From: Schmidtea nova
Lineage: Eukaryota
DNA length: 50,367 nt
Assembly: GCA_044892505.1 (NCBI GenBank)
Contig: CM097883.1
Span: 391,468,234-391,518,600 of the forward strand
Reading direction: 5' to 3'
The translations under genes were made by a program, and so were the position numbers. Each line of letters begins with the position of its first letter. Position 1 is the stretch's first letter. Shown in pieces: positions 4,084 through 25,353 of this stretch. The notes beneath the pieces were generated by a model that did not search any database, was not told where the DNA came from, and saw only the letters and a program-made list of their open reading frames with translations.

Positions 4084-5900
4084 CAAGGGTGAGCAACCTT
4101 TTAATTTAAATTTTAAAATTTTTTGGCGGGCCGTACATAAAGTAACACTTATTATTAATTTACAAAACTTTATTTATAATAAACATTATAATAAACAAAT
4201 ATAAAATTTTTTTAAAATATAAAGATTTCATATACAAATTTTAATGCAAAATAAAAACAAACAAGAAAACAGAAAAATGAAATTTTTAATGAGAAATTTG
4301 GCACTGTTTTTTCGATACAAGCTGATGAGAGTAGCTATACGTACTCAGCTTTCTAATCGTGCATCACTCATTCTTGATCGGTGGTCATTTTTGATTAATT
4401 TCATGGTTGAAAATAATAGTTTGCAAACATACATACTTCCGAACAGAGACGTCATTTGCTTTGCATTTTTCATCAAAATCGGAAATTTCTCAGGGCTCAC
4501 ATAAGATTTATAAAAGTTTTCGATGTTTACTGAGAAAAATACATTTTTTAAATCGGTATTATTTTGCATGTCAATCTCTTTTATTTGAAAGTCTACGGGA
4601 ACTGTATCTACATCGATATTAAATGGCGAGGAAAACATGTTCATGGAAACCGCTGTCTTTTCAGCTTTGAACATTTGGAATCGTAATTGTAATACATTGA
4701 TTAGAATGTCTATATATTGTGCGTATTTTTGATTAGTAATAACGTTTTCTTTTTCTAAATGTGGAAAGTGAAACACATTATTCTGCAAAAGATGCTGTTT
4801 CCACAATTTTAATTTGCGCTCAATGCCCTGAATTTTATCATACAAATTGTGAATAAACTGTCCTTTGCCTTGAAGTTCCACATTAAGATCATTGAGATGC
4901 TGAGTCATGTTGATAAGAAACCCAAAATCGCACATCCATTCTTTATATCCCTTCATATCCAAAAACAATTGTATTTCGCTTTTTAAGTTGTATACTCTTT
5001 TTAGCATTGTACCTCTACTAAGCCAAAGTACTTCGGTATTAAAAACCACGTCGCCATATTCAGTTTCTAAATCTTTCAGGAATTCTTTAAATTCACGGCA
5101 ATTTAACGCGCGCGACTTTATAAAATTGATTAGTTTAATTATTGGTACTGTCACATTTGGCAAGCTCAATCTTTTCGCACACAAATTTTCCTGGTTAATT
5201 ATGCAGTGGTTAACGAATATTTCCCTTTCTGTGACCTTCTTAATGTCTTGAAATAGCCTTCCCGATACTCATACTTCCATGCTTGACATTGCTCGAGCTC
5301 CATCTGTCGATATACCAATAATCTTTTCTAAGAAAATTGAAAAATTTTCCAACACAGACTTCAGTTCATTGTACAGGTCTTTGCCGGTTGTAATCCCTTG
5401 CATTGGAAACAGTGAACATAATTCTTCGGTAATATTAAATTTGGTGTCAATACCACGTAAAAATATAGCCAGTTGTGCTGTATCAGTAATATCACAACTC
5501 TCATCAAGTGCCAAAGAACAGTATTCGAATTTTGCAATGCGTTCACGAAACATTGTTGCTATGTTCTCGGACAAGTCTTCGATTCTCCTTGCAATGGTGA
5601 ATCTTGATAAACTAATGTTTGAAAAAATATTTATTTGATCAGAAAATGCTATTTCTGCAACAGCATTAACACATTTTTATATCATCTCTCCATCCGCAAA
5701 GGGTTTCATTTTTTTGCCAGTATTTGACTGACAACAAAACTAGCCTTTACTGCCGATTTTGATAAAATAGCTTGAGTTTTAAAAATAACCTGTTGTTTTC
5801 CAGGTTTTTTACCATTTGATTAAACTTATCTATCCAGAGTTGTCCTGTCAAGTTTTTATATTGTTGTTCATGTCTTGTATCGTAATGTTTTTTTTGTTAT
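4084..5900 (-). mobile_element. Decayed hAT DNA transposon (Buster/SPIN/GTF2IRD2-like transposase), frameshifted
   Basis: ORF pieces 5269-5574 and 4345-5184 carry hAT motifs SLALDES, STDGA..M, WLSRG and SPF. The C-terminal S(T)YxCE motif reads SMYVCK, so the catalytic Glu is lost. A terminal-like CAAGGGTGAGCAACC lies at 4084. The other end falls in the gap. Confidence 0.85.
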
Positions 5901-7720: not shown

Positions 7721-8338
7721 ATTAAAGTTAAAAAAAAAAATTATCAAATTGAAGCAAAAATGAAAATTTTACTCAGTAAAGTCGTTTATTATTTTTCAAA
7801 AAATTCCTCTGTTTCCCTCCCTCGAATGCCAATTTCCTACCCCTTATACAACATTCTGATAACCACAATATTGCGCTACTTTGTCAAATTAAACTTTACA
7901 ATTACCTAAAAAATTAAACTACAAATCAACAATAAACTATAAAAAATTAGTAAACTACATATTAGAAATATTTTATTCGTTATTTTCTAATTGAGTACTA
8001 CCTCTTTAAACATTAATATCAAACTGCAAACCCGCACCATACTTTTATCAAAACTAATGTAAGATAAAATAAAGGAAATCCCCTGCAGTTATGTGTCACA
8101 CAATTTGTTGTATAACATACAACATTTTGTTGAATCAAGGTAAATTAAATTCGGCTACAAAAAGTTTGCGTAAAGATAGAGTCAGTAGTTTTTAGAACTT
8201 ATTTTTAATAAATTAAAAGTTCTGCGCAGGAGTTTGAGAAATGGTTACTAAATTTGGAAACCATTTTGTTTCAAATGTTTAGTGTTAAAATGTCAAAATT
8301 GAGTAGGTAGATGTGTGGAGCCGGGAACAAAGACATTA

Positions 8339-8500
8339 TGACTCATGCGTGGGCGGAAAAAAAAGAACAAAGACCCCCCCCTCCCCCCGGGGGGGGGTAG
8401 AAATTTTTTTTTTTGGTGAGTCATCGATGAGTCATCGATGACTCATCGATGAGTCATACTTTTTTTTTTGATGAGTCATCGATGAGTCATCGATGAGTCA
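8339..8500 (+). promoter_or_regulatory. Array of AP-1/TRE-type sites in the left TIR (11-bp unit TGASTCATCGA)
   Basis: TGA(C/G)TCA at 8339, 8417, 8428, 8439, 8450, 8472, 8483 and 8494. Function is inferred from the motif only. Confidence 0.6.
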
Positions 8501-8523
8501 TAATTTTTTTTTTCAAAAATTTT

Positions 8524-8726
8524 TTTCGCGCCAAATTTTTTTTTTCAAAAATTTTTTTTCGCGCCAAATTTTTTTTTCAAAAATTTTTTTTCGCGCCAAA
8601 TTTTTTTTTCAAAAATTTTTTTCGCGCCAAATTTGTTTTTCAAAAATTTTTTTCGCGCCAAATTTTTTTTTTCAAAAATTTTTTTCGGGCCAAATTTTTT
8701 TTTTCAAAAATTTTTTTCGCGCCAAA
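8524..8726 (+). promoter_or_regulatory. Tandem array of 7 E2F-type sites (TTTCGCGCCAAA) in ~32-bp T/A-tract units, left TIR
   Basis: Six perfect copies plus one CGGGCC variant. The 12-mer matches the overlapping double E2F site of mammalian DHFR promoters. Confidence 0.65.
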
Positions 8727-9184
8727 TTTTTTTTTCAAAAATTTTTTTAATTAGTCCAAATTTTTTTTTACTAATTTTTAAAGACGAATTTTTTTTAAGA
8801 TAAATTATTTTTAGTCAAATTTTTTTTTAAAAACAAAATTCGAGTAATCAAAAATATTTACAACAGGTGTGCAAACAAAGACATTTTTTTTATGTGTGCA
8901 TGTTTAATTAATTATTATTTGTCAAGTATGAAGCTTTTGCACTTCAAAACCATCACAGAAGAGGTTCTGCTTCCAGGGTTCTGATCGCAATGTTCTGCTT
9001 CCAGGGTTCTGATACTAAATGTTCTGCTACATTTAATTATTATTTTTTCAAACTAAAGACATTGCAACACGCGTGCAACATGAACAAAGACATTGCAATA
9101 CACATGCAAACTAAACAAAGACACATGCGTGCAACACATAAACAAAGACATTAAAAAGACAAAATTTATTTATAAATATATCGT

Positions 9185-9950
9185 NNNNNNNNNNNNNNNN
9201 NNNNNNNNNNNNNNNNNNNNNNNNNNNNNNNNNNNNNNNNNNNNNNNNNNNNNNNNNNNNNNNNNNNNNNNNNNNNNNNNNNNNNNNNNNNNNNNNNNNN
9301 NNNNNNNNNNNNNNNNNNNNNNNNNNNNNNNNNNNNNNNNNNNNNNNNNNNNNNNNNNNNNNNNNNNNNNNNNNNNNNNNNNNNNNNNNNNNNNNNNNNN
9401 NNNNNNNNNNNNNNNNNNNNNNNNNNNNNNNNNNNNNNNNNNNNNNNNNNNNNNNNNNNNNNNNNNNNNNNNNNNNNNNNNNNNNNNNNNNNNNNNNNNN
9501 NNNNNNNNNNNNNNNNNNNNNNNNNNNNNNNNNNNNNNNNNNNNNNNNNNNNNNNNNNNNNNNNNNNNNNNNNNNNNNNNNNNNNNNNNNNNNNNNNNNN
9601 NNNNNNNNNNNNNNNNNNNNNNNNNNNNNNNNNNNNNNNNNNNNNNNNNNNNNNNNNNNNNNNNNNNNNNNNNNNNNNNNNNNNNNNNNNNNNNNNNNNN
9701 NNNNNNNNNNNNNNNNNNNNNNNNNNNNNNNNNNNNNNNNNNNNNNNNNNNNNNNNNNNNNNNNNNNNNNNNNNNNNNNNNNNNNNNNNNNNNNNNNNNN
9801 NNNNNNNNNNNNNNNNNNNNNNNNNNNNNNNNNNNNNNNNNNNNNNNNNNNNNNNNNNNNNNNNNNNNNNNNNNNNNNNNNNNNNNNNNNNNNNNNNNNN
9901 NNNNNNNNNNNNNNNNNNNNNNNNNNNNNNNNNNNNNNNNNNNNNNNNNN
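9185..9950. other. Assembly gap inside the Polinton (other gaps: 3530-3890, 5901-6355, 30339-30467, 36865-37653, 39436-39628)
   Basis: Runs of N. Confidence 1.
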
Positions 9951-10166
9951 TATTAATAATAATATTAATAATAATAATAATAATACTATAAATCAAAATA
10001 ATAAAACACTTAATAAAACATATAATAATAACTTATAATAACTTATAAAAATAACTTATCAAAAAGAAAAAAACTAATAAAAATAACTTATAAAATATTA
10101 ACAAAAAAAAAATAATAATTTCTTAGTTTTAATTGATTGCGCAATTTATTACAATCAAAATGTAAT

Positions 10167-10182
10167 GGCCCTAAAGAGGACC
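10167..10182 (-). terminator. Histone-mRNA-type 3' stem-loop 2 (GGTCCT-CTTT-AGGGCC) downstream of polB
   Basis: 6-bp stem and 4-nt loop with histone-like flanks (AAC...ATTACA). An AATAAA follows on the same strand at 10150-10145. Confidence 0.6.
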
Positions 10183-10436
10183 GTTAATTCGTTCACATTC
10201 TGATTCGGCTTTCTGAATATTTTCATCATTTGTTTCTGTGTATTTTCCTCATTTGTTTCGTATGATTTTTAATCATTTGTTTCGGATTATTTGTTTCTGA
10301 ATATTTTCATCAACATTTCTTTCTCTTTATTTTTATCAATTGTTTTGGATTATTTTCATCATTTGTTTCTGTAATCTTTTTTTTTCTTCATCTGTAAGCT
10401 AAAATTTAGTAATATTTGTTTACAATCATAAATTGT

Positions 10437-10452
10437 GGCCCTGAAGAGGGCC
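10437..10452 (-). terminator. Histone-mRNA-type 3' stem-loop 1 (GGCCCT-CTTC-AGGGCC) 143 nt after the polB stop
   Basis: Fits the GGYYYT-YTYN-ARRRCC consensus and is followed by ACAA, in sense orientation to polB. Confidence 0.65.
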
Positions 10453-10594
10453 GATTGTTCATTCTCATATCTTTTTTTTTTTTTTTGGTTTTTTGATTTT
10501 CTTTTTTTTTTTTTTGGTTTTTGATTTTCTTTTTCTGGTTTTTTAACTTTTTTTTTCCATTTCATTCTTATCATCTTTCTCCTTGCCATCATAA

Positions 10595-10658
10595 TCATGC
10601 GAAATAATCCCGAGCCGTCGGGTCATAGAAAGCGTAGGGGTCATCTTGTTGTTGAAGC

Positions 10659-10692
<34 letters not shown>

Positions 10693-13600
10693 CTTGGACA
10701 TCCCTATCACCTACAAATATAGTGGTGTCACCCCCCATATAATGACCATACGCCAAACTTTTATTTTTTTCCACCCAGTTCCTCTTATCGTCCCTACAAG
10801 ATAAAGCCCTCTTATTACTTTTAATACTGAAAAGTTGGTGGTTTTTCGAAGTAATGCGGAACTGGGGGACATTGTATATCTTATCATTAAGGTAACAGTC
10901 AAGATAAGATTGATGTGTGAGACCTGCATCTTTCAAACAGATCCCCTTGGCTTTCATGCAGGCCTCGTCTCCCATAAGACTATAGCACTTAGGTCTCAAG
11001 AAAACCCACTCATCATACAGTAGACCCTTATTCTCATCCTTAAATTTGCCAATCACAGAATCTAGGGTCCTACTATACAATGTATGACGAGTGTCGTAAT
11101 TAGAGGTATCCAAAAGCCTATCTCGAATCATGGCGGTCAAAAGGGTGTTAAGATCAAGATGTTTGATTTCCAAGAAGAAGGAATCAGTATCCCCAGCAAC
11201 GATGTTAATTTCGCAGTTGAAGTCGTTACGATATTTTTGTAACTCTTCATACTGCAGCTGGTACATACGAAGTTTGGATAAATCCAGTACGGTTTGTCCA
11301 ATGTAGCTGGGTCTATCCAAACATACTGATTCCTTCTGAAGCAATACGGAGATGAGATCATTGTCGATTTTTGTAGTTTTTTTGAAATTAGCTTTTGACG
11401 TGTAAGTCAGCAGTTTTTGTGCCGAGTTACACAGTCGTAAATTTATGCGTTTTTTTAAGTTCTCTACGGTTTTGCCGTAGAGACTATTATTTAATAATTT
11501 GTAAAAATTTTTATCGAGCTTGTTGGTAGCAGCCGCTCGTAAACTGGTGTTTATGTTTATGTAATTAAAAAATATTTTTTCTTGCTTAAATTTAATAGCC
11601 CTGTGGACTTTAGTTACAATTACACCGATTTTTATAAATAGTTGCAGAAGCCGCCAATGAAGAACATAATTCTTCTTTGGAAGATGCGTTAGCAACAGCT
11701 TCTCAACCTTGGATCCCGGTGCACACATCTTTTCAGCGGCAACTGGAAGATCATCCAGTTTGTCGTGAATCGATGCCGGAATTTCCAAATCCACTTCTAT
11801 GGTGTAACCATAATGAAGTGTATCGAGATTTCCCGATGTGCACTCACAAACGATTTGATTTAATAATTGGTCATCAGTGACCCACTCAAAATTACCACAA
11901 GGAAGGGGTTGGCTTAAGGCCCACCCGTATAAATTATTTATGTCAATATATAGTAATGCGGTATCCGGGCTCGTCTTGACATAATGTTTATTGACAAACG
12001 TTAGTCCGCCGCGAATACCGCCCTCGAAAAAGTTATACATCTCCATATCGGTGAGGAGCTCGATAGGAGAGTCAAGTGTTAATAAAGCGGAACTCCACGA
12101 CATGCCGGGAATTCCGAGAAAATTTAAAGGCTCAAGCCTGTTATGGTTAATTGATTTTAATCGAAATTGCTGAAAATAATCAGCTAACAAAAACACATCC
12201 AATTTTAAATAAACCATCATGTAATCGTACAGTGATGTACATGATGTTTCTTGCCAGATTTTATGGGCAGCAGCATACTCGACAGCAGTTATATCTTTCC
12301 ATTTCGGGGGTAAACACAAGGTTGATTTTAAAACTTCTAAAGAAGTGGCAGCGTCGTAAGGAAAAATGCCCTTGGCAGTGACTATAGTGCCTCGAAATTC
12401 AGATTGTGTTAATGGTAAGCTAGTGAGTGTTTTTACTTCGTTATTTAGAGACTCACTTACAAACTGATAAGAGTCAATAAATTTTACGGTCAGGCTATCG
12501 ATGTACGCGAAAAGGCTAAGAAACTTTTCACTTGTCAAGGGTATACAACTAATATTCCAACTGTTGTATTTTGAAAGACCATATTTTAAAATATGGTGTA
12601 AATCGTAACCCTTCAAGTTATGAAAGATTACGGGCAAAGAGTGTCGTATTTGCCGTGACTTGTTACACTCTGAGCAGGCTGCTCCAATATAAAGACCGGT
12701 GAAATGGTCGTGATCCCTAACAGGTGCCACTAAAAGTTTTTTGCATAAATAACAATTAGTGCTATTATCAAATTGTCGCTGTTGGGTCGCAGTGATAGTC
12801 ATGCGTTTTTGATAATTTTTATAGTAATAGGGTGTCACTATATACCGACTGATTGACTCAATTTCTCTTAAGAATTGATCAACACAGTCTAACCCTACAA
12901 AAGATTTGTAAATTCTCACCCCAGAAAAGTTGTTAATGAGAAGGAGACCTGCGGCAATAGGAAGATGTTTTTGGTGGTGAACAGTGTCTTTCGGTAATAT
13001 TGCCTCGAAATCCGCATATATTACAAAAGGAGGAGTTACTGTTTTTTTCCAATCAGTAAACTCCAAAAATTTATTTTTGGGTAATGTGTACAGTGTGGTA
13101 CCCAACTGATTTTTGTTACAAAGACCCTTATGACGATTAAAGGCTTCGTCGTTCCTAAACCCATTCAAGCAACGAGGGCACCATTGACTACAAATCCTAA
13201 CTGGGGTGATTGTGCTGTTTCGGCAATTCAAAAAGCGATTCAGATCGGTAATCGCAAGATAATGAAAATTATCTTTTTTCTCCAAGAGAAGCAAATTTAT
13301 GGGAATAGCCCCGACTACTTTACTACGGTAGACTATATCGATAAAGGGGTGTTTAAGGACGACATTATCATCATTGTCGTTGTCGCTTATATCAATTTGG
13401 GCCTTTTCGTCATATGTAAGGACATTTATACTATAGCCACTGTTTTGTCTTTCAAATTTTTTAATATTTACTAATTTCATGGGCATGTCGTTGGGGTCAA
13501 AAACAAGTTGGGAAATGTCATAAGAAGTAGTCCTATGCCTGTATTGGCGTTCAATACTATTGTATTTAACTACTGCTAAAAAGCTATATAAAAAGCAATA

Positions 13601-14221
13601 GGTGTCATTATTTTGTACATTAACTAAACAACTTAAATTTTTTAAGGTATTCGGCGTTTCGATATAACTGCTGCCGCTCAATCGACTAATTTCAGAAAAT
13701 TTAGTCACTAAAAAACTAATATATTCGATTTTGGAGATTGTCCAATTACTCCCCTTTTCGTTAATCTGGACAATCTTCTCATTTAAATTAGTGACACCTT
13801 CCTCAATAAAGGTATCACTCCACTCTCTGGCAGAATTTGAGATGACGAAAGATTGTAGTTGATCATCTTTCTCAAATTCTACCTTGAGACAAAATTGAAT
13901 TTTTACAGATTTTAAATTAATAATATAAGATTTTAGTTTTTCTAATAATATATCCGGCACAGAGACCGTTTTTAATAATAAATTAGATACATCCATTTTT
14001 ATAATAAAATGGGTATCGTTCAAGTCGGAAGTAACTTCAACAATACCCATTCCAATTTGATTATTATTATTATTTAAAATATTAACATAATCGTCAAATT
14101 CATCATCATTGACGATTATGTCATCGGCGGATATAATACTGATATTAGTACTTTTATTATAAATAAGATCATCCTCATCATCACTGATGAGGGATATAAT
14201 ATTATTATTATTATTATTAAT

Positions 14222-14284
<63 letters not shown>

Positions 14285-14823
14285 ATTTTCATCTTCATCA
14301 TCGCTGATGTCGATTATTATAATTTTTTTAGGAACTGAATCCATTAATGTTTGGTTTTTTCTTTTATTTATATTTGATGTATTGATTTTATTTGTATTTT
14401 GTATATTATTTGTTTTAATAGTATTTTGTAATTTATTTGTATCAATAGTATTTTGTAATTTATTTGTATCAATAGTATTTTGTAAATTATTTGTATTAAT
14501 AGTATTTGTTGTATTATTATTATTATTTGTATTTATATTATTTGTTGTTTTATTTCTAATAGGAGTATTTGATAAATTATTAGTTTTATTCGAAATATAA
14601 TTTTTATATAACGAATTAAAAAGTGATTTTTTAGATGGTTGGTATTGGGAAAGGTGTGACCTATGAAAGATATAAAATTCCCTATAAGAAGTAGTTTCAA
14701 TAATTTTACATTTAGGGCATAGGAGGTGGGTGACACCATTATATTTATATGAATAATACTTTTCCATAATGACATGACAGTCACTATGGAAAGTATTATT
14801 GCAAAAATTTTGGTATATTGAGC
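10595..14823 (-). CDS. polB: Protein-primed family B DNA polymerase (pPolB), main exon; ATG-only ORF 10595-14767, 1390 aa
   Basis: Exo I YADFE, Exo II FHNLKGYD, Exo III YLKLD, Pol A YIDINNLYG, Pol B KLLNNSLYGK, Pol C GDTDS, and KAKG. Also an EndoVII-like RDHDHFTG..CSECN insert and an OTU-like DTYCF...HY region. The frame stays open upstream to a CAG acceptor at 14826-14824. Confidence 0.97.
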
Positions 14824-15870
14824 CTGAATATTGAAAAAAAAAATTAAAATCAAAGGCTACAATTATAAAATTAAAATATTATGAGTAAAAATTAAAATAT
14901 TATTAGTAAAAATAAATATTTCAAATAAGAGATTATTACCTATTAAGTTAATGATTAATATATTTTTATAACAAAAAAAAAATTAATATTTTGATAAATA
15001 TTTAAAATAATAGTTAATTGTTAAAAAATAAACATTTACCTATTATTTTAAATATAATCAAAAGTTTTATATATATATATTATTTTTAAAACCTAATCAT
15101 AAAAAATAATATTATTTTTATATCATTATAAAATCATCATTAAAATATTAAAAATTGTTCATCAATATAATATATTCTTCATAAAAAATTTCAGCATAAT
15201 AATATCATCTTCGTCATAAAAAAAAATTGAGCGTAATAATATCATCTTCATCATAATAAAAAAAAATTGAACATCATCATATCATCTTCTTCATAATAAA
15301 AAAATTGAACATCATCATATAATCGTTTTTTTTTTTTTGTCATAAAAAATTTCAACTACATATTTTTTATTCATAAAAATAATTTTATATATATATTAAA
15401 AATAATAAAAAAATATTAGCATAAATATATAAAAAATAATATTATTAATTTCATATAAATTCAACATTATTTCATCATAAAAAATTTGAGCATTATTATA
15501 TCATCTTCATCAAAAGAAAAAATTGAACATCTTCATATAATATTTTTTTTTATCATAAAAATTTTAACATTATATTTTTTTCTTCATAAAAAAATTTATC
15601 TTTTTCTTCATAATAAACATTTCTTTTCATTTCAAATTCATAATATCATAATTTTTTTCTTCATAATAAAAATATATCTTTTTTATTTTCATTTCAAATT
15701 CATAATATCATATTTTTTTTTCTTCATAATAAACATTTATTTTCTTCATAAAAATAATTTTATCATAAAAAATTAATTAATTTATTTAAAAATATTCCCA
15801 TAGGAATTAATTAAAAATAATAAAAATATTATTATTATTATCATATACAAAAATAAAAATAAAAAATTAC

Positions 15871-16257
15871 ATTTGCCAGAGTTTTTTCCAATAAAACTCT
15901 GCATATTGGACCATCCGTTATAAGCATCATTAATCGGGACATCGTTACTCGGCATATTGGTACTCGAGACATCGAAATTCAGGACATCATTATCATCACC
16001 ATCATCATTAATCGAGGCATCTATATCAACAACATTTCCTAAAAAATTGAATAATAAAGAAAATAATAATTTAATAATATTAATTTTACTATTTAATCTG
16101 TTTTGATTTTGGATTCTTAACGATGTTCCTACCATATTGTTGGATAAATTAACACCTAGAAATAATATATTATAAATATAATAAAATAAAAATTAATAAT
16201 TTTACTTTTTAGACCTCCGGCGATCCTTGTTGGTAAATTAATATTTAAATTTTGCAT
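15871..16257 (-). CDS. Three upstream coding exons (16257-16206, 16155-16090, 16038-15871), probably the 5' exons of polB
   Basis: GT-AG introns of 50 nt (16205-16156) and 51 nt (16089-16039), all phase 1. A donor at 15870 is phase-compatible with the polB acceptor (T+GC = Cys), giving a 4515-nt frame (1504 aa + stop). Confidence 0.6.
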
Positions 16258-16325
16258 AATTGCTTTAGAAATTGATTAGAAATTTGTTATAAAATTTGAA
16301 AGTAAAAAGTGACGAAATAATTCAA

Positions 16326-16476
16326 GTATATACTATATAAAGGTGAATTTTATTAACCGACCAATCAGAATCGAGATAGGATAGGTAAATACATGCACAC
16401 ACATACTGCACACATAATATACCTTTGTTTATGTGTGTTTGACGTCACGATATTGCTTTGTATCGTGACAAAGACA
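16326..16476 (-). promoter_or_regulatory. Putative polB promoter: TATA-like, CCAAT, CRE and ACAAAGACA elements
   Basis: TATATAG at ~16339-16333, CCAAT at 16361-16365, TGACGTCA at 16440-16447 and ACAAAGACA at 16468-16476, all upstream of the ATG at 16257. Confidence 0.5.
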
Positions 16477-16615
16477 TGACATGTGATTATCACGCATTGA
16501 TCACGCACTGGTCATGCCTTTGTGATGAAAATAATAATATTTATAATTAATAATAATAAAAATAATAATTAATAAAAATAATAATAAAAATAATAATAAA
16601 AATAATAAAATACAT

Positions 16616-17017
16616 TTATTGCTTTAAATAATCAACAACAGCAGACAAGCACCCTTTATAGGCACACATGCAATGATCTTTATAGGGACATGAAATGTTT
16701 TCAGGAACATATTCAACATCTTTAAAATTATATTTAATTAATCTTAATTTGGGGAAATACTTCTTCAAAACATACATCTTTTCATGATCTGTTACATAGA
16801 AAATAGCTCCTTTATCTGTAATATCATCCATTATACATTTTGGGCAAAAATAATCTTGTCCTTCAAACGATTCTATACGATCAGGCCATAAAGATAAATC
16901 ACTGTATATATAATACTGAGGTGTGAATATATTATTGACATTCATAATACATAATTCCTTAATTGTTGTTCCACCCATTTCATTATATCCATAAAAATCA
17001 ATAAAATAACAAGACAT
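16616..17017 (-). CDS. Small conserved Polinton accessory protein (133 aa), possibly DnaQ/DEDD nuclease-like fold
   Basis: N-terminal IDFYGY...IKELCI, central FYV..HEK..LK and C-terminal CP..H..CA resemble a recurrent Maverick protein family as I recall it. The fold assignment is tentative. Confidence 0.55.
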   Translation of the reverse strand: MSCYFIDFYGYNEMGGTTIKELCIMNVNNIFTPQYYIYSDLSLWPDRIESFEGQDYFCPKCIMDDITDKGAIFYVTDHEKMYVLKKYFPKLRLIKYNFKDVEYVPENISCPYKDHCMCAYKGCLSAVVDYLKQ

Positions 17018-17049
17018 TTTTTCAAATAAAGTTTATTAAAATAAATTGT

Positions 17050-17427
17050 TTATAACATTGATTTCAACCATGCAAGGCAATGTTCACCACAAGTGATTGT
17101 TAAAGGATGCTGATACCGAATTCTATTATACACAATAGGTTTACCGATAGTTTGTAGTTTTCGAACAAGTAAATTCGGATAATAATATCCAAATGGATCA
17201 AATACATGTATTCGATCTGGTTTCACATAAACTGCAATCCAATGTTCACCACCCAATGTAGATGTCTGAGTATTTACAATGATGGCTTGATTCATTTTCA
17301 AATAAGGTATTTTATCGAGAGGAAATACTCCAATAAATTGATTTCCCAATAGTTTTTTACCTTGTTGTAATACCTGAAAAGAACTAATTAAAAATAAATA
17401 ACTAATCAATTAAAAATCTTACTCCAT
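17050..17427 (-). CDS. Adenain-like (family C5) maturation cysteine protease, 2 exons (17427-17423, 17383-17050), 112 aa
   Basis: GEHW, FDPFG and Q..TITCGEHC supply His, Asp, Gln and Cys. A 39-nt GTAAGA..TAATTAG intron yields the N-terminus MDSFQVL..FIGVFP. A TATAAA lies at 17465-17460. Confidence 0.9.
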
Positions 17428-17467
17428 AATAATAATAATAAAAATAATAACTTTGATCATTTATACT

Positions 17468-17538
17468 GTTTGAGCTCTGCTCAAACCAGTAATGTTTAAG
17501 CTTTGCTCAAACTAGTAATGTTTGAGCTCTGCTCAAAC
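17468..17538. repeat. Three 26-bp-spaced copies of a 19-bp palindrome GTTTGAGC-TCT-GCTCAAAC between MCP and protease
   Basis: Copies at 17468-17486, 17494-17512 (variant) and 17520-17538. The last overlaps the MCP stop codon. Confidence 0.9.
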
Positions 17539-18753
17539 CAGTATTGTTCGATTGGCAGTAATTTGAACTTCATTTTCAAAAACTCCATAAATAACTACAT
17601 GAACCGGTTCATCAATAGGTTTTGCAAACTTTATATCCAGTCGTAAATTTCCGTTTTGAGGGATTTGGCTTTGATTCAAATCAAAATCGGGAGCCAGAAC
17701 AAATGTAAAGAATGGATAACTAGATTTAAATTCATCTAGACCAATACCACAATTCAAGTTTTTATCCAAATAACCTAGATTTCGGACAAGACTTTGCATA
17801 TATGATGCACTAAAATTATCATTTTCAAAATCCTGGGTATATGTTTCACGATAATCGGTATTTTTCGACAATGTTAATGAAGTCACATTAAAGTGTTTGA
17901 ATGTAGATGTTGACTCAGTATAAGACCCATTATATTGATTTTCGGATTGAAAAGCCACAAGAATGAAATTAGGCATTCGTCTATCTCCAAATATTTGCTC
18001 CTTGTAAAATGACGATGCCCCTTTACCGATAGCAAACGATACGATTTCTTTGGATTTTAATGGATAAATTGCATGTTTTTTATTTAAACCAATTTGATGA
18101 CCGGCCAATACTGAAGAATCACATCGAACTCTTCTTACCATTAATTTTGCATCAACTATTTGGATAACTGGTTTTCCAGCTACCGATTTCAATGATAATG
18201 CAGAATCAGATCGCTTCAATCTAATATGTACATTAACTCCGGGAAGTAAGTATTTAGGTTGATCCATAAAATCCAGTTGTAATGACGAACACATGTTGAA
18301 AAGTTTAGATCCTTTAATCCATTTTTTTCGATCGTCAGCTGAACCATATCCCATTGGAGTAAGACATGTTTCTTTAGCATCATTCGTATAATTTAAAATA
18401 GTTTCGATTATTGCCTTGTGTGCATATGTATTGTTTCCACCCTCGATTTTTATATTATTAAATCCGAGAATTACATCTTTGAAAAGTGTATGAAACAGGT
18501 AATTATTAGGAACTACATCACTCGCATCGGCTAGAGCTTTTTTATCTTTATCTACAACTTTGATTGTAACGGACAATAATGTATCGTTCAAATCCAAATA
18601 TTCGGTTTGAGAACCATTAATGTAAAATTCAACATCATTTCTACTATCTGTAATTGAATTCATTGGAAACACATCTTCAAACGCCCCATATTCAATAACT
18701 GCTTGAGGTGATGGTCGATCAAAAAGACATAATTCAGATTTACCGCAAATCAT
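17533..18753 (-). CDS. Major capsid protein (double jelly-roll, Polinton PY), 406 aa
   Basis: CGKSELCLF..P..IE, VEFYI.G..EYLDL..T.L, LDFMDQPKYLLPGV and GNLRLDIKF are typical Polinton MCP motifs. Confidence 0.93.
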   Translation of the reverse strand: MICGKSELCLFDRPSPQAVIEYGAFEDVFPMNSITDSRNDVEFYINGSQTEYLDLNDTLLSVTIKVVDKDKKALADASDVVPNNYLFHTLFKDVILGFNNIKIEGGNNTYAHKAIIETILNYTNDAKETCLTPMGYGSADDRKKWIKGSKLFNMCSSLQLDFMDQPKYLLPGVNVHIRLKRSDSALSLKSVAGKPVIQIVDAKLMVRRVRCDSSVLAGHQIGLNKKHAIYPLKSKEIVSFAIGKGASSFYKEQIFGDRRMPNFILVAFQSENQYNGSYTESTSTFKHFNVTSLTLSKNTDYRETYTQDFENDNFSASYMQSLVRNLGYLDKNLNCGIGLDEFKSSYPFFTFVLAPDFDLNQSQIPQNGNLRLDIKFAKPIDEPVHVVIYGVFENEVQITANRTILV

Positions 18754-19133
18754 TCTTCAAATATAGTTCCATGACCTTTCATTCGTTTGTTTATACGCTT
18801 TCGTTTACGTCTTGGTCCTACCGGTACAGATTCCGGTTCCTTATTTTTTGTAAACATACTTGTAATTGTAGGAAGCATTTGTGTTACAGCAGGTATAGCT
18901 TTATTAACTGCGGCCAAAGCATTGGTTTTCAATGACGGTAATATTTTATTATCTTTCATGATAACGTCCTTGGCAGTATTCATTCCGAAATTACCTAGTC
19001 GTCTAAGAATTGGAAGTGCAAATCTCCCAATAGTTTTCAACCAACCTGATCCATACTGTTTACCGACAAAATACGGTAATTCGCCACCAGTTTGGCTATC
19101 ACTGTACATTGAAACTATATCGGGATTACTCAT
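18750..19133 (-). CDS. Putative virion core/membrane-lytic precursor protein, 127 aa
   Basis: QTGG and QYGSG glycine motifs, then an amphipathic WLKTIGRFALPILRRLG helix and a basic RRKRKR tail. Lies between mCP and MCP with overlapping start/stop codons. Confidence 0.7.
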   Translation of the reverse strand: MSNPDIVSMYSDSQTGGELPYFVGKQYGSGWLKTIGRFALPILRRLGNFGMNTAKDVIMKDNKILPSLKTNALAAVNKAIPAVTQMLPTITSMFTKNKEPESVPVGPRRKRKRINKRMKGHGTIFEE

Positions 19134-20169
19134 CGTTTTTTCGAAAATGTAGAGTTAAGTGAGTTTTTGAATCTTTTGGAAATTTTATAAATCTTCCACT
19201 GTCATCCCGGATATTTATTTCTATATTGTTTATACAGGATGTTGAAACAGGTAAATACATTGGATTTTCAACTTGTATTTGAACAATTTCATCTGGCTCG
19301 TATTTTTCAATCCATATAGATTTTAGTAAAGGAACCAAGGAATCACCAACAATAATGGGTTCGATAATGTTTGTATATACGAATAATTGCTGATGAAGTT
19401 TAGATATTTTCGGTTGACGAACACCAGAAATAATATTTTTATCGGTAAATGTATCCTTATCTAATCCCAATGTATTGACCAAGTATTTATCAAATCTGAC
19501 TTTATTGATTTTTTCTTTGAGTTTGAATTTAAACAATTTATTTAATTCGACAACTGTAAAAATATCCGAACAATTATCGCTAATATATTTCTGTAATTCA
19601 TCTAGATGCGTTATATACAACTCCTCCTTGAAGGTGAATACATGTCCTTCTTGACGATCATACGATATTTTAAAAGTAATTATTTCTTCATCGTTACTGG
19701 CCAAGTTTTGCATAACTTTGAATTCACATTCTTCTTCATTACATATCATTGTCAGTTTATTACTTCCCATTCGTTTTGCTACATCAAGATCGTTAAATGT
19801 AATTGTATACGGAACAACATTACACGTGAGAATTATTCTTCCACTTCGTTGCCACATTTCGATATCCGGATCAATTGTGTGAGTTGGAACATTCAGAAGG
19901 CCACTATTATTATATATCGAGAAAAATGCATTTGCAACAGTTGTTTTCGTAATATAGTAATATATTTTACAATAACTATAATATGGAAAAGGATGGTAAA
20001 CAAATGTAAAATCCATTAGAGCAACTTCCCAATTTCCGTTTAAATAAATAGGATTAGGTAAATTCACCATGAATTTACTTGCGGTATTATCTGGATGGAT
20101 ATTCGGACAACTATTACTCGGTAAAATAGTGTAAAAATTCACTTTACTAGATTTTTTGACGAGATCCAT
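19126..20169 (-). CDS. Minor capsid protein (penton, Polinton PX), 347 aa
   Basis: FYTILPSNS..PDNT..F.V.LP.PI.L.G.WEVAL and LFVYTNIIEP..VGD..VPLL..Y.PV..IEINIRD. Confidence 0.92.
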   Translation of the reverse strand: MDLVKKSSKVNFYTILPSNSCPNIHPDNTASKFMVNLPNPIYLNGNWEVALMDFTFVYHPFPYYSYCKIYYYITKTTVANAFFSIYNNSGLLNVPTHTIDPDIEMWQRSGRIILTCNVVPYTITFNDLDVAKRMGSNKLTMICNEEECEFKVMQNLASNDEEIITFKISYDRQEGHVFTFKEELYITHLDELQKYISDNCSDIFTVVELNKLFKFKLKEKINKVRFDKYLVNTLGLDKDTFTDKNIISGVRQPKISKLHQQLFVYTNIIEPIIVGDSLVPLLKSIWIEKYEPDEIVQIQVENPMYLPVSTSCINNIEINIRDDSGRFIKFPKDSKTHLTLHFRKNDE

Positions 20170-21183
20170 GATGGTTCTTTATATCCATGCCATTTGACAT
20201 AGTATTGTTTATCCTTACCCACCATTTTAGTCTTCAAAATCTTTTGAATTCTAAATATCGTAGGTTTAGGAATAACTTGTAATTCTTGTTCGTAGAATTT
20301 GCCGCTGATTATATTGTTATCAGAGTCACGAATAGTATACATGACAGGATTCTGCACTGTGTTGACTTTCGATATTTGATATACCTCATCACTCCAATTA
20401 TTATCAAAATTTTTAACGAATGGCGATGTACTAATCTTGCTAATTCGAACATGATCATCAACTTTATATTTTGGTTTCTTTACTTTCACTTCACTCACAA
20501 TATTTTCAGTATCAACTACTTCTGCCGGTTTCCTACCATTTATACCCCGATGAGCACTATGATTATAACTATGAATCAATTGAGGTAAGACATTAATCCA
20601 GGTTTTATTGCCTTTAAAAACAAAGTATTTTTTCAATCGATCACGCAAAGTTCGATTAAGTCTCTCGACATGAGCGGCTTTGAATTGTGAGAATACCGAA
20701 TAATGATTTATTCCCTTGATAACTTCCTTGACTTTACTGTTGTAAAACTCCTTTCCTAAAAAATATTAAATTTATAAATTTAAATTAAAATTTACCCAAA
20801 TCGGTTTGTAAATTAGTTGGCCGATCCTTTTTCATCATTGTCTTGATAGCAATTGCCATATCATTAGCAGATTTTGATTTTACTCCAATTGCTCGAGCAA
20901 ATCTACTGTAAACATCAATACACGTTAAAATATACTTGTACCCCTTGTTAATTTTGGAATACGGAATCATTTCCATCAAGTCCATTTGCCACAAATCATT
21001 GATTCTATATGTTTTATATGCTCGAGTTGGAAACCGTTTCAACATCGGCTTGTTTAGACTGTATGCAAGTTGCCCCGATAACCAACTTTGTGTCTGTTGT
21101 TTCGACTTCTGTGCTTTTTTCCTTAGCTTTTCGACTCCACCGAAACCGGCGTCGTCTTTTGGGTTCGTCCAGATCTTCTCCAT
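20139..21183 (-). CDS. int: Retroviral-type (rve) DDE integrase with C-terminal chromodomain, 2 exons (21183-20796, 20755-20139), 334 aa
   Basis: WQMDL, QTDLG|KEF and VERLNRT form D-D-E once the 40-nt GT-AG intron 20795-20756 is removed. Total 1005 nt in frame. YYVKWHGY..SW chromodomain. Confidence 0.95.
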
Positions 21184-21238
21184 TACAACAAGAAGATTTA
21201 AAGTTTAAATTTAAATTAGGTAATGATTGACCCATTGT

Positions 21239-21748
21239 TTATGACTTTCTTTTTCCCAATAAACCAGCACCTCCCAATAAAGATAATGCTAATGGTAACA
21301 ATGCTGCGATAAAACCACCTTGTTGTTTATATATTACTTTGCGCATAAGTTTTTTATTTTTTGAGTTTACTAGCGACAACAATGGTTTTTTATGTTTGTT
21401 CAAAACACGGCGATTAGATGGAGTTAGATTTATTTTACCTCGCACGACTTTAATTAAAATAGAGAGTAAATCATCGATGACGTAACTAGGAAACGATTGA
21501 AGAATACCCATTCTTCTAACGGAAGGGGCTTTAAGTAATGCATTAAAAAACGGTAAACTACGATGATGTGTTTGTTTAGCATTAGATTTCAAATTATTTT
21601 TGGGAATATTATCCATAAGTATTTTCTTGGATTTCTTTCTTGATTTCTTTATAGATTTCTTTGTAAATAGTTTCTTTGTTTTCTTTCCCGCTTTCTTTGT
21701 TCTAGCCTTTATCAATGGCTCAAACTTTACTCGAGATTTCATTAACAT
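21239..21748 (-). CDS. Putative basic DNA-binding core protein precursor, 169 aa
   Basis: Lys/Arg-rich N-terminus. C-terminal QQGG-FIAALLPLALSLLGG hydrophobic segment with protease-site-like GG motifs. Confidence 0.7.
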   Translation of the reverse strand: MLMKSRVKFEPLIKARTKKAGKKTKKLFTKKSIKKSRKKSKKILMDNIPKNNLKSNAKQTHHRSLPFFNALLKAPSVRRMGILQSFPSYVIDDLLSILIKVVRGKINLTPSNRRVLNKHKKPLLSLVNSKNKKLMRKVIYKQQGGFIAALLPLALSLLGGAGLLGKRKS

Positions 21749-21768
21749 GATTACGATTGCAAACAGAA

Positions 21769-22392
21769 TTAACTTTGTTTATAAACCATGGCTCCTTCAG
21801 GGTTAAAAATATCGGTTCTAACCCGTAAATCATCACTACATTGTTGAGTAAAATCAAGGAAAATATATCCATGAGGAGATTTTGTAGCATCTTGAAAGGC
21901 TTCAATCAAAAAGTTACGATTAGAAGGATAAGCTTGTCTTGCCAGAAAATCAATAACTGTTGCATCTCTAGGATTTTTAAAAACAACAAGATATTGAACA
22001 TTTAAATTACGAGTTCGATGACTACCGCCCTGATGAAATAAATTCTGAGTTATAAAAATAACAGTAACACCTTTATGTCTACTGATTTTCGTAAATAAGT
22101 TATTGAAATCCTTTTCTTTATTTGCTTCTTGATACAAGTCGTCAATGATAATCACATCACCATGTTTTAATCTAGATGACCAGTTTTTATCGAAACCTTT
22201 AATGATTGTCATTTTTATTTTACAAAACTGATCTTGTGTCATTCCACTTTCGTCGTCAGCACCCCTATGCCAATAAATATTATTAAATTTTGACTTGAAT
22301 AATTTCGATTGCAATAATTTACAAACAAATAAAGTTTTTCCACTCCCGCTCGGACCAACAATTTGAAACACTGCATCATTTCTTAATTCCAT
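21769..22392 (-). CDS. FtsK/HerA-superfamily (A32-like) genome-packaging ATPase, 207 aa
   Basis: Walker A GPSGSGKT, Walker B IIIDD, SRH..VIFITQNLF and N.QYLVVFKNPRD. Confidence 0.95.
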   Translation of the reverse strand: MELRNDAVFQIVGPSGSGKTLFVCKLLQSKLFKSKFNNIYWHRGADDESGMTQDQFCKIKMTIIKGFDKNWSSRLKHGDVIIIDDLYQEANKEKDFNNLFTKISRHKGVTVIFITQNLFHQGGSHRTRNLNVQYLVVFKNPRDATVIDFLARQAYPSNRNFLIEAFQDATKSPHGYIFLDFTQQCSDDLRVRTDIFNPEGAMVYKQS

Positions 22393-22485
22393 ATTTAAAA
22401 ATTATATTTTCTTAATATTATTGTTTATATTTGTTTTAAATACCTGTTCTCAAAGTAATTATTTCATTTAAAAATATTTTCAGTA

Positions 22486-22953
22486 ATGATTAGAAACATT
22501 AATTACAAAGGTAAGACAGATGTATCACACATGAAATTTCCAAATGGAAAACCCCAGCAAATTGTAGATCGAAGTGGAAAATACCCAATAATATACTTTA
22601 AATCAGGAAGATATAGAATAATGGGATGCAGGGAATTTATTAGTGACGAACAAGTTGAGTTTTACGATTTAAAGATACAATCGATAACTGTAACTGCGGA
22701 TTTAGGATTTATTTGTAATTTGAATGAATTATCGAAATTAATACCATGTGTTTACGAGCCAGAATTATTTCCAGCTTTGAGATATATCAAATATAATCCC
22801 ATGTGTGTAAATATATTTGCAAGCGGGAAATTAGTCATATTAGGATTAAAAAACAAAGACTATAGTACTATAGTTGATGATATTATTTACGATATAAAAT
22901 CAATTATAGAAGATAAAGCCTTTATTGATTTCATACTAACATGTGACTCATGA
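22486..22953 (+). CDS. TATA-box-binding protein (TBP)-like protein, 155 aa
   Basis: Two TBP repeats: RNIN..IIYFKSGRYRIMGC and KIQSIT..DLGF..L..L..YEPELFPALRY..NIFASGKLVILGLK, compared with canonical YEPELFPGLIY..LIFVSGKVVLTGAK. Confidence 0.88.
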   Translation: MIRNINYKGKTDVSHMKFPNGKPQQIVDRSGKYPIIYFKSGRYRIMGCREFISDEQVEFYDLKIQSITVTADLGFICNLNELSKLIPCVYEPELFPALRYIKYNPMCVNIFASGKLVILGLKNKDYSTIVDDIIYDIKSIIEDKAFIDFILTCDS

Positions 22954-23128
22954 CTGCAATATCGATGCATTAGAAATGCACGATTCTGATTGGCTCTGTG
23001 TGTATCGATAGAATAAAGACATGTTGTGCATGCTTCATTCTGATTGGTTCATTATGTATGTTTCAAATCATGTGTGTTTCTTTGATATATATACTATGAA
23101 CAATCTCACATAGTTTATATTCACAATA

Positions 23129-23792
23129 ATGTCTCTTACGCAAACACTAATTAAAAGCCGTAAGGATTTTTAATTATTTATTTATTAAAATTAATATTAT
23201 TTCTTTTTTAGAAAAGTTGATGAACGTTATTTACAGAAAGCTTGAGGAACTGTTCCCAAATCTTATGCCAGCTCTGGTCTATACGGCTCCTGAGATGTTC
23301 CCGTACAAGATAATGGTCTTGACGGGAATCGACATCAATCAGATTGTGCTCGATCACATGACGAGCCAGAATACTGATCTTCCAAGGGTACCCGAGCACA
23401 TTATCTGTGCGTACCAATGCGGGAGCTGCGTGGAACGCATTCGTCAATTTAATATTTGGGTTTTGCGAAACTCATTGAGATTATACGAAGTCCAGCAAAT
23501 GGACAAAATCGATGAGGAAAAGGAAGATGATGAACAAGTCAAGGAAACATGGCCGAACTCGACTCCGGAACCGAATGATGATGAAGATGATCAATCAAAA
23601 AATGATTGCTCAATGGAACATGCACCATCTCTAGATGGTCCGTATCCATCGAAATCACCTGATTGTTCAGAATCTCCACATTCACCCGATTGTGCCGAAT
23701 GCCATCGACAGGCTGATGGTGTTGATAATGATGATGAAGAAGAAGAAGAAGAACAAGAAGAAGAAGAAGTAAAAGAAAACGATGAACAATAA
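23129..23792 (+). CDS. Hypothetical protein with acidic C-terminal tail, 2 exons (23129-23159, 23212-23792), 203 aa
   Basis: The ORF-track start is a TTG just after a TTTTTAG acceptor. A 52-nt GTAAGG..TTAG intron restores an ATG start in phase (612 nt). GC content is raised, and CCAAT and TATA-like elements lie upstream. Confidence 0.7.
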
Positions 23793-24290
23793 TCTGATGT
23801 GTATGTGTGTGTTTAATGTAATTAGTTTTTTTCTTTTAGTTATGTTATTTTAGTTTAATAAAAGTTTATTTATTTATTTTAGTTTTTTTATTCATTTTAG
23901 TTTTTGTTTTCATTTAAATAATAGTAATAGTTTTATTTTTTTTTTTTTTTATTAAAACATTTTAAGTAGTAGTTTTTTAATTAACTGTATATAAAAGTTA
24001 AAAAAAAAAAATTTTTTATTAAATACTTTTCAGAAAGAAAGTAGTAGTAGTAGTATTATAAAATAAATAAGAACATTAGGAACAGAACCTATTCTGTGTT
24101 GGTTTTGATATGCAAAAAGCTTCATACTAAACATATACTAATTAATTAAACATGCACGCATACAACAAAAATATTGCAATACATGTGCATACTGTGTGCA
24201 AAACAAATGCATGAATATGATTGGACAAAGACATCCAGTAATCAGTATAAATACAAAGACATTTTATAAAATATTGTCACAATTTACAAC

Positions 24291-24707
24291 ATGCAATCAC
24301 GAAAAGAAAATCTAGATATAAGCGAAGAAAAAATATATCAGACTGAGGTAAAACCAGTTCAGATGTACTATGACAGCCGACTTTATTTTTTGGTTAATGA
24401 AATACCGTATCGATTATCATTTCCGGTAAAGTTAACAAAATCTTTATATGACAGTCTTGCTATAATTATTTCCAAAGCAGATATTATCGCATTAAATCGA
24501 TTATTTTCAAAGATCAATGTTAATTTGACATGTAAAGAAACAATGTACATCAATAACCGAAAAACTCGGTTTCATGATGCTTTTCAGACTATTGATTTCA
24601 TGGATCAAGAACACTGGTTCGTTACAGTTATTATTCAAGGGTACAAGATTGATAAAAAAGATGTTGTTACTCCGATTTGGAGAGTTGACAATGCAAGATA
24701 CGCATAA
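24291..24707 (+). CDS. Hypothetical Polinton protein, 138 aa
   Basis: Clean ATG ORF with TATAAA at 24246-24251, an ATTGG box upstream and AATAAA ~10 nt after the stop. Confidence 0.7.
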   Translation: MQSRKENLDISEEKIYQTEVKPVQMYYDSRLYFLVNEIPYRLSFPVKLTKSLYDSLAIIISKADIIALNRLFSKINVNLTCKETMYINNRKTRFHDAFQTIDFMDQEHWFVTVIIQGYKIDKKDVVTPIWRVDNARYA

Positions 24708-24771
24708 TTGTTTTTTAATAAATATTTTAGTATGAACAAATTTAGTTTTTATATTAGTTTTTGTTTTTAAA

Positions 24772-25353
24772 ATGAAATTAATTATAGTTATTTTATTATT
24801 ATGTGTTGACAATACTGAAGGAGAACAAGCTTTGGAGGATTGTCAATCATCACATCCGTTTCGAAAACAAGATAGTACTTGCGCGAGTTATAACGATATA
24901 TGTCTTTACTCAAACATTGAATGCAATCAAATTAAATTACAATGTAATCAATGTCCTTCCAAAAATAATGTGATTAATAATGATATTGAAAAAATGATTA
25001 ACAAAATAATTATGAAAATAGTTGAACGATTAAAATGTATAAATCAAACTATTGTTAAAAAAGAATATGAAGTCAGATACCAAAATCAAACAGTTGAAAA
25101 CGAAAAAACATCAATTGTTTTACATTATATAAGTTTATTTATATTAATAATAATACTGATGTTATCGGCATCCATACGGCTGGAGAAGATTTCAAATATT
25201 CCAAAGAATAATATTCCGACAAATACTAGTATTCCGATGAATAATATTACAATGAATAATATTCCGATGAATAATATTCCGAGTAACAATTCAGATGTAA
25301 ATAATTTTGAAACTAAATTTTGTACACGTACACAACGATATATTTATAAATAA
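24772..25353 (+). CDS. Type-I membrane protein with signal peptide and 6-Cys ectodomain (TNFR-CRD-like), 193 aa
   Basis: Hydrophobic N-terminus, C-x12-C-x6-C-x6-C-x6-C-x2-C, two NQT sequons, TM segment ISLFILIIILMLSASI and an NNIPMNN-repeat tail. Confidence 0.7.
   Translation: MKLIIVILLLCVDNTEGEQALEDCQSSHPFRKQDSTCASYNDICLYSNIECNQIKLQCNQCPSKNNVINNDIEKMINKIIMKIVERLKCINQTIVKKEYEVRYQNQTVENEKTSIVLHYISLFILIIILMLSASIRLEKISNIPKNNIPTNTSIPMNNITMNNIPMNNIPSNNSDVNNFETKFCTRTQRYIYK

Follow-up and report, generated by a model that had tools for sequence, protein, structure and literature searches.

We suggest that the E2F-like repeats at both ends of the element described here form the cell-cycle module of a compound host-factor enhancer/silencer cassette in the terminal inverted repeats (TIRs) of a Maverick/Polinton, a reading of the sequence on which we are evenly divided. 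The element spans 18,053 bp (positions 8302–26354) of the window, that is, the whole stretch of 50,367 bases analysed, and both its ends start with AGTAGGTAG, which places the repeats in true TIRs (Table 1). Its TIRs measure 883 bp or more, the flanking 6-bp duplication is identical on both sides (second copy at 26355–26360), and its genes include, by Pfam (PF03175, PF00665, PF00385, PF04665, PF00770), pPolB, an rve integrase, a packaging ATPase and a cysteine protease. Mavericks have a published size range of 12.7–24.6 kb and published end motifs (AG)3 or (AGT)2 (PMC8097293); the termini found here, AGTAGG, agree with (AGT)2 at five of six bases, the published motifs being from vertebrate elements. 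Size and ends fit the Mavericks of that paper, the element type points to an animal host, and the size, TIRs, 6-bp duplication, AGT-type ends and core gene set are alike in the Maverick and adintovirus elements of PMC8097293 and PMC8502044. E2F has no occurrence in the main texts of these two papers, and a description of E2F/AP-1 arrays in Maverick/Polinton TIRs was not found in the open full-text literature.

Table 1. Coordinates of features of the element and its immediate boundary
Feature	Positions	Strand	Remarks
Left target site duplication	8296–8301	+	6 bp
Left TIR	8302–9184	+	begins AGTAGGTAG; inner edge hidden by N gap 9185–9950
Outer TIR module	8327–8398	+	two ACAAAGAC motifs, one AP-1 site (8339), GC box (8351), C-run/G-run hairpin (8373–8398)
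AP-1 array, left	8417–8501		11-bp tandem, TGA(C/G)TCA, 7 sites
E2F array, left	8504–8726		seven 31–33-bp units; nt 203–425 from terminus
T-tract/A-tract scaffold, degenerate continuation	8727–8837		CGCG core absent
Inner TIR module	8868–9184	+	ACAAAGAC(AT), TTGCAA, TGTGCA repeats; 28-bp and 31-bp tandem units
Protein-primed family B DNA polymerase	10595–14767	-	PF03175, E 5.8e-20; reads toward left TIR
Presumptive promoter upstream of polymerase region	16291–16530	-	CRE, CCAAT-type box, ACAAAGAC, TA-rich box; promoter status inferred
Adenovirus-type cysteine protease	17053–17409	-	PF00770, E 5.3e-06
Presumptive major capsid protein	17533–18753	-	label inferred from size and gene order; 147 unnamed homologues
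Retroviral-type integrase with chromodomain	20142–21183	-	PF00665, PF00385; two reading-frame pieces, 40-nt GT-AG intron candidate between
A32-type packaging ATPase	21769–22392	-	PF04665, E 6.7e-07; L001 counterpart 57% identical
Small TBP-like protein	22486–22953	+	PF00352, E 1e-13; atlas matches TBP-family
Internal copy of inner TIR segment 25616–25717	24067–24169	+	103 bp, 82.5% identical, blastn E 8e-24; upstream of SSB-like gene
OB-fold viral SSB-like protein	24291–24707	+	model pLDDT 92; Enc34 SSB, T7 gp2.5, ASFV CP312R at Z 6.8–7.0
Right TIR	25336–26354	-	inner limit is a minimum, set by left-side N gap; overlaps stop codon and AATAAA of ORF 24772–25353
E2F array, right	25905–26108		seven exact copies; nt 227–450 from terminus
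AP-1 array, right	26131–26238		8 consensus sites and one changed unit

The arrays and their place in the terminal repeats

Allowing one mismatch at most, TTTCGCGCCAAA has 14 matches in the window, all inside the two TIRs and 13 of them exact. The left copies lie on the forward strand at 8524, 8557, 8589, 8620, 8651, 8683 and 8715; those of the right array, all exact, lie on the reverse strand. Seven E2F double sites per TIR had been claimed in the preliminary description, and seven units do occur at each end, but only six of the left ones are exact, the sixth copy (8683–8694) carrying one core mismatch. A unit consists of T9-10, CAAAAA, T7-8, CGCGCC and AAA. Tandem Repeats Finder reports 7.7 copies with a period of 32 and 95% matches on the left (8505–8748), and 8.7 copies with 93% matches on the right (25853–26127). 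In 13 of the 14 units the canonical E2F/DP consensus TTT(C/G)(C/G)CGC with A/T flanks is present on both strands. The 12-mer is the DHFR E2F site of a published table (PMC2784457), in which promoter, as here, the consensus is read on both strands, and it agrees with the consensus TTSSCGC (PMC5716687, Table 1), so that the proposed identity as an overlapping bidirectional E2F site holds. Flanking runs of 3–5 A/T narrow the minor groove that an E2F arginine reads, and in SELEX of E2F2/DP1 a GGCGGG core was preferred over GCGCGC (both PMC4686757).

The three-turn spacing and the A/T embedding of the units were confirmed as well. The cores follow one another at 31–33 bp, with means of 31.8 and 32.0 bp (3.03 and 3.05 turns at 10.5 bp per turn) and a phase coherence at 10.5 bp of 0.93 and 0.73, while runs of at least five A or T account for 67% and 70% of the array sequence compared with 6.9% of the background, where the maximum in any 230-bp window is 32% (n=4,398). 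Poly(dA:dT) tracts exclude nucleosomes. Compensation among T-tract lengths as a means of holding the period was considered and was not supported (rho -0.29, p 0.32, over 14 units that are not independent), and sigma-70 promoter matches in the TIR are an artefact of the repeat. On the outward strand all 14 units carry a CHR-like TTTGAA, 9–10 nt from the GC core. A composite CDE/CHR (DREAM) element was rejected, given this spacer of 9–10 nt, where the CHR hexamer of CDE/CHR-type tandems lies 4 nt downstream of the GC element (PMC5716687), and TTTGAA is common here (155 matches); the units may, on sequence, contain a lone CHR.

The adjoining array, absent from the preliminary description, is made of TGA(C/G)TCA sites, which we take to be AP-1 consensus. 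Six of the seven on the left, and most on the right, extend to the full 9-mer ATGA(C/G)TCAT, and the left array is interrupted by a T-tract that preserves a 22-bp step. The two TIRs differ by 15 substitutions in 875 aligned bases, two of which (positions 141 and 174) swap the central C/G, a change that the AP-1 consensus tolerates. Whether the AP-1 and E2F arrays would share a helical register depends on the pitch assumed, with a coherence of 0.83–0.91 at 10.7 bp but 0.19–0.28 at 10.5 bp. The AP-1 units are joined by CG, which puts an ATCGAT palindrome between neighbouring units, 5 in all on the left (array at 8417–8501) and 6 on the right, presumably a Cut/Onecut- or DRE-like core. Nearer to the end, the C-run/G-run hairpin and its right-TIR copy lie 70–95 nt from each terminus and form the sole strong stem kept in the centroid fold.

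Further inward, the TIR resembles DNA from inside the element. Three presumptive promoters (16291–16530, 22954–23110 and 24100–24290), chosen by position and motif content and unmapped, have 40 of the 230 informative 8-mers of the inner TIR in common with it, compared with maxima of 18 for flank windows (n=1,107) and 21 for coding windows (n=367). The E2F and AP-1 blocks contribute 0 of 10 and 0 of 37 informative 8-mers to this sharing, which comes largely from the 103-bp block at 24067–24169; this block would be a promoter module common to both places or else what is left of a former TIR edge. Because the inner TIR has this sequence in common with the presumptive promoters, regulatory DNA of the element itself would seem to have gone into part of the TIR. 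The promoters have in common CTGATTGG/GATTGG, which gives a CCAAT box in the opposite strand, as well as AAAGACAT and TGTGCA; their AACAAAG presumably fits Sox/TCF sites and might alternatively be a site for a factor encoded by the element. The second of them carries a DRE-type TATCGATA and has an AP-1 site directly upstream (22944). AATAAA occurs on the outward strand near the inner edge of the left inner module. An inward TATA promoter at the TIR inner edge is possible, but was set aside as the same bases supply the AATAAA of ORF 24772–25353.

The genes between 10595 and 22392 are oriented toward the left TIR and those between 22486 and 25353 toward the right one, so that all identified genes adjoining the TIRs point toward them, the nearest start codons being 1.1–6 kb off. 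The adenovirus E2 early promoter has E2F sites directly upstream of replication genes, and the analogy with it drawn in the preliminary description fails here: the array lies downstream of the polymerase gene, which faces it, and the nearer E2F array is 6.0 kb from the polymerase start and 7.6 kb from the presumptive promoter of that gene. By comparison, the E2F sites of both the E2 early and DHFR promoters are promoter-proximal and upstream of replication genes. TTTSSCGC is absent from the three presumptive promoter regions and from 14768–16615. No identified gene start lies within 1.1 kb of the arrays, where starts are unmapped and 766 N bases adjoin the left TIR (9185–9950), a gap that could contain a gene. 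E2F and CHR sites normally act no more than about 200 bp from the transcription start (PMC5716687).

Chance, amplification and rival readings

In a shuffle test of TTTCGCGCCAAA with up to one mismatch, a mean of 0.20 and a largest value of 2 matches were obtained and none of 100 shuffles reached 14; this test ignores tandem duplication and overstates the case, because each set of seven is a single tandem array. Taken as a single event, the two-strand E2F 12-mer is expected 0.8–1.9 × 10^-4 times per kb (Markov orders 0–3). An all-G/C core occurs in 0 of 342 background TTT-N6-AAA contexts, the E2F 12-mer in 0 of 20,000 simulated 32-bp units, and the AP-1 9-mer in 1 of 20,000 random 11-bp units. 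On a lenient panel of 30 textbook motifs, scored on 20,000 random units per length, some motif was found in 3,416 32-bp units (17%) and 1,274 11-bp units (6.4%), or about 1% jointly. Since two exact motifs stand side by side here, and this has a joint probability of about 1% even on the lenient panel, the sequence moderately favours function, bearing in mind that palindromes may arise preferentially in TIRs.

Selection is another matter. That the 12-mer is "kept seven times" had been taken as its sign, but the copies reflect recent tandem amplification and homogenisation between TIRs; forming one tandem array, they are no proof of selection. Within the 14 units, 1 base in 84 has changed in the core and 1 in 237 in the T-tracts, and the core is therefore not better conserved than its spacers. 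Copy number also varies between ends in neighbouring arrays (AP-1, 7 left and 8 right). We conclude that the number of E2F copies is slippage-driven and need not involve selection. The persistence of a CpG-rich core in AT-rich DNA cannot be read as selection either: CpG observed/expected is 0.86 and 0.93 in the flanks (27–30% G+C) and 0.77–1.11 in eight 4-kb windows, and with flank CpG barely depleted there is little CpG decay for the core to resist.

Relatives were sought by a profile search of prokaryote genome contigs with the capsid protein (31-sequence alignment, that is, 30 of 120 listed matches and the query). Three loci were found, of which one (L001), a Polinton binned into a bacterial genome assembly, reaches a presumptive terminus; the other two (L002, L003) are Polinton fragments in prokaryote bins, probably through binning contamination. 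L001 has 46% capsid identity and a similar gene set. Its end region (11232–12067, 836 bp) begins AGTAGT and is a presumptive TIR resting on a 33-bp inverted match, the other contig end being cut. It has 57–63-bp and 138-bp repeats of its own, and in these 836 bp of one distant relative neither E2F nor AP-1 consensus was found. The 57–63-bp repeats carry CATGCGCGCAT and a GCGCGC palindrome. Going by this single distant relative, repeat-built TIRs would recur, and the E2F/AP-1 motif set would be lineage-specific or recent.

Much of this could be accommodated by a structural or neutral minisatellite, in which a phased A-tract scaffold, bent and nucleosome-poor and either under selection or simply tolerated, carries an E2F-like unit that was amplified by slippage and copied between the TIRs. 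The T/A scaffold runs on inward with other cores, its A-tract centres are partly phased (0.43–0.49 at 10.5–10.6 bp), the TIR repeats of L001 are unrelated, the inner repeats of the two TIRs differ by 83 bases and the AP-1 arrays by one site, and the core is conserved no better than its spacers. The last point counts for little, as the array holds too few substitutions for an absence of constraint to mean much, and two adjoining exact textbook motifs would have to have arisen by chance, at odds that are far lower at the observed stringency than on the lenient panel; we regard the minisatellite as unlikely. Rather improbable, in our estimate, is a packaging signal, likewise absent from the preliminary description, which the element's A32-type ATPase and a partner would read at a fixed distance from the end and with which E2F binding could coexist. 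Seven AT-rich units at nt 203–425 (left) and 227–450 (right), with TTTG and CG in the outward strand of every unit, in an element that encodes an A32-type ATPase, a protease and presumptive capsid proteins, resemble the seven AT-rich A-repeats of Ad5 at nt 220–400, which are phased by whole turns (PMC5033970). However, TTTG and CG are separated here by N1, N3 or N14–16, and a search of both strands of the two TIRs gave no N8 match; in adenovirus the domain sits at a single end and not within the ITR; L001 has no similar array despite an ATPase that is 57% identical; and, the array being unstable, the number seven may be a coincidence.

Protein-primed origins and their auxiliary factor sites occupy roughly the first 50 bp, whereas the array begins about 200 nt inward of the terminus. 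This makes it very unlikely, in our view, that the array is an auxiliary origin or end-recognition element, at which bound host factors help the terminal protein/polymerase or the integrase to engage the ends, even if it is present symmetrically at both ends and a block of the inner TIR recurs beside the SSB-like gene. The first 459 nt fold strongly as a single strand (z -9.7), a score expected from palindromic repeats and of which little is kept in the centroid structure. More doubtful still is a decoy, in which 14 double sites per genome, at high copy number, would sequester E2F/Rb/DREAM repressors and drive the host cell toward S phase, replacing an LxCxE oncoprotein. LxCxE "Oncoid" genes, marked by a conserved LxCxE protein with a CK2 site and CxxC, occur in other adintoviruses (PMC8502044), and the sites here are dense and lie at a distance from every identified promoter. 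The readable part of the element yielded no conserved LxCxE protein of the Rb-binding kind, although an Oncoid gene may hide in the 766-N gap; the decoy would also require a high episomal copy number, and activators would be titrated too.

Viral precedents and a possible gate at the element ends

The terminal control regions of viruses, and transposons as well, are already known to contain E2F sites. By analogy, the left end of adenovirus, where an E2F site at nt 280 overlaps the seven-repeat packaging domain, is a better match than its E2 promoter. In Ad5 this domain consists of seven AT-rich A-repeats at whole-turn spacing with a bipartite TTTG-N8-CG consensus, the CG being bound by IVa2 (PMC5033970), and the nt-280 site binds Rb/p107, keeps the immediate-early gene repressed and is required for the virus to persist (PMC4726734). 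Both genomes are linear, protein-primed and of a related kind, with E2F consensus 200–450 nt from the terminus, seven AT-rich repeats in the matching interval and activator sites near by. In Ad5, though, the E2F sites are single and number one or two; they occur at one end, not within the ITR but directly upstream of the immediate-early gene, and their partner is GABP; the Polinton has seven phased double sites inside both TIRs, an AP-1-like partner array and no identified downstream gene, and it departs from TTTG-N8-CG. Merkel cell polyomavirus, in which an E2 site of the NCCR supports E2F-driven early transcription (PMC12642449), is alike as a small DNA virus that ties early transcription to S phase through host E2F/DP; it differs in having a single site beside the early start and an LxCxE feedback protein, neither of which was found in the Polinton. 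Amplified E2F consensus sites are carried by DNA transposons as well, namely Brassica/Arabidopsis MITEs, where they are reported to be bound in vivo (Henaff et al. 2014, cited in PMC5950925). These MITEs are non-autonomous and are discussed as donors of sites to host genes, whereas here an autonomous, virus-like element has the sites in its own TIRs.

From the end inward, the proposed enhancer/silencer cassette begins with the terminal module and continues with the AP-1 array, repeated every 11 bp, the E2F array, repeated every 32 bp on the same helical face with rigid A/T spacers, and the module shared with the presumptive internal promoters. The poly(dA:dT) spacers would keep the element end nucleosome-poor and E2F/DP would occupy several of the phased sites. 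In quiescent or differentiated cells, Rb-family proteins or DREAM would be bound and the ends silent; in cycling cells, Rb would be released and AP-1, induced by stress or wounding, could cooperate. Once released, the ends might enhance the internal TATA/CCAAT promoters from a distance, so that replication genes would be licensed when host S-phase supplies are present.

The host-factor reading draws on the exact two-strand consensus with its A/T flanks, the adjoining AP-1 array, the inner module in common with the presumptive promoters and, by analogy, the viral precedents. It would have to contend with starts 1.1–6 kb off, when E2F and CHR act near starts, with a core no better conserved than its spacers, with E2F and AP-1 blocks that have no informative 8-mers in common with the internal promoters, with the lack of both consensus motifs in the end region of L001 and of an LxCxE protein, with the SELEX preference for GGCGGG, and with rates of 17% and 6.4% on the lenient panel. 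What remains of the earlier interpretation is motif identity, spacing, A/T context and improbability by chance; copy number, CpG content, the E2 analogy and "activation" alone fall away, the last because a repressor site is what occupies this position in the viral precedent that has been studied best (PMC4726734).

If true, this would mean that a transposon-virus has converged on the Rb/E2F logic that adenoviruses and polyomaviruses use, by amplifying a cis-element and not through an oncoprotein, and that every insertion drops two cell-cycle enhancers beside host genes. The prediction is that quiescent cells keep the element silent and that stressed, cycling cells express it. The finding bears on what switches animal Mavericks/Polintons on and on whether they have a virion stage, no particles of animal Mavericks having been observed so far according to PMC8097293. 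Improbable in our judgement is a fuller version in which the TIR, as an elaborated counterpart of the adenovirus left end, is a phased AP-1 plus E2F logic gate, with the provirus latent under Rb/DREAM and open only in stressed dividing stem or germline cells, and the seven AT-rich repeats double as a packaging signal for the ATPase of the element; this would be the first defined regulatory code for an animal Maverick and the first cis-acting sign of a virion stage.

Coding capacity and flanks

ORFs whose size and order would fit double and single jelly-roll capsid proteins are present; the larger, the presumptive major capsid gene, is without a Pfam match and stands in the same gene order in L001. 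Capsid proteins 64–84% identical to it exist in closer relatives. The TBP-like gene also occurs in L001 (38% identical), and its product may serve the element's own TATA promoters. Maps of adintoviruses/MELD elements likewise show TBP-like and SSB-like accessory genes, the former named in a figure legend (PMC8502044). For ORF 24291 the assignment as an SSB-like OB-fold, which depends on a structural model, is of moderate confidence: the Foldseek E is only 0.015 and Z is below 8 in VIA. A full HMMER scan gave 31 homologues of this ORF, and neither it nor ORF 23220 had homologues in a word-indexed database. Its LxCxE was rejected as an Rb-binding motif, since one of the 23 sequences in the alignment (the query and 22 of the 31 HMMER matches) has it and it falls inside the folded OB domain of the model.

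ORF 23220–23792 (+) has a Cys cluster and an acidic tail and is without LxCxE. ORF 24772–25353 (+), which terminates inside the right TIR, has a signal-peptide-like start, a Cys-rich part and a hydrophobic segment. A small Cys-rich ORF at 16616–17017 (-) is 31% identical to an L001 ORF of the same neighbourhood and is possibly a candidate for the gene class labelled "MAEL" on adintovirus maps. Directly downstream of the polymerase, a Lys-rich open stretch with 23-bp repeats (10150–10590, -; AATAAA at 10145) perhaps encodes a basic core protein of small size; it contains two short palindromes, GC-rich and almost identical to each other, at about 10167 and 10437.

The element appears to carry spliceosomal introns: the GT-AG candidate in the integrase falls in 20766–20800, and the region ahead of the polymerase ORF (14768–16290) likely holds 5' exons and an AT-rich, repeat-filled intron. 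Intact vertebrate Mavericks are described as intronless (PMC8097293). Rfam gave no matches for structured RNA in 8000–27000. The host flanks contain two broken hAT transposase fragments and three copies of a 138-bp tandem repeat (positions 4348–5676, 27149–27586 and 48599–49014).
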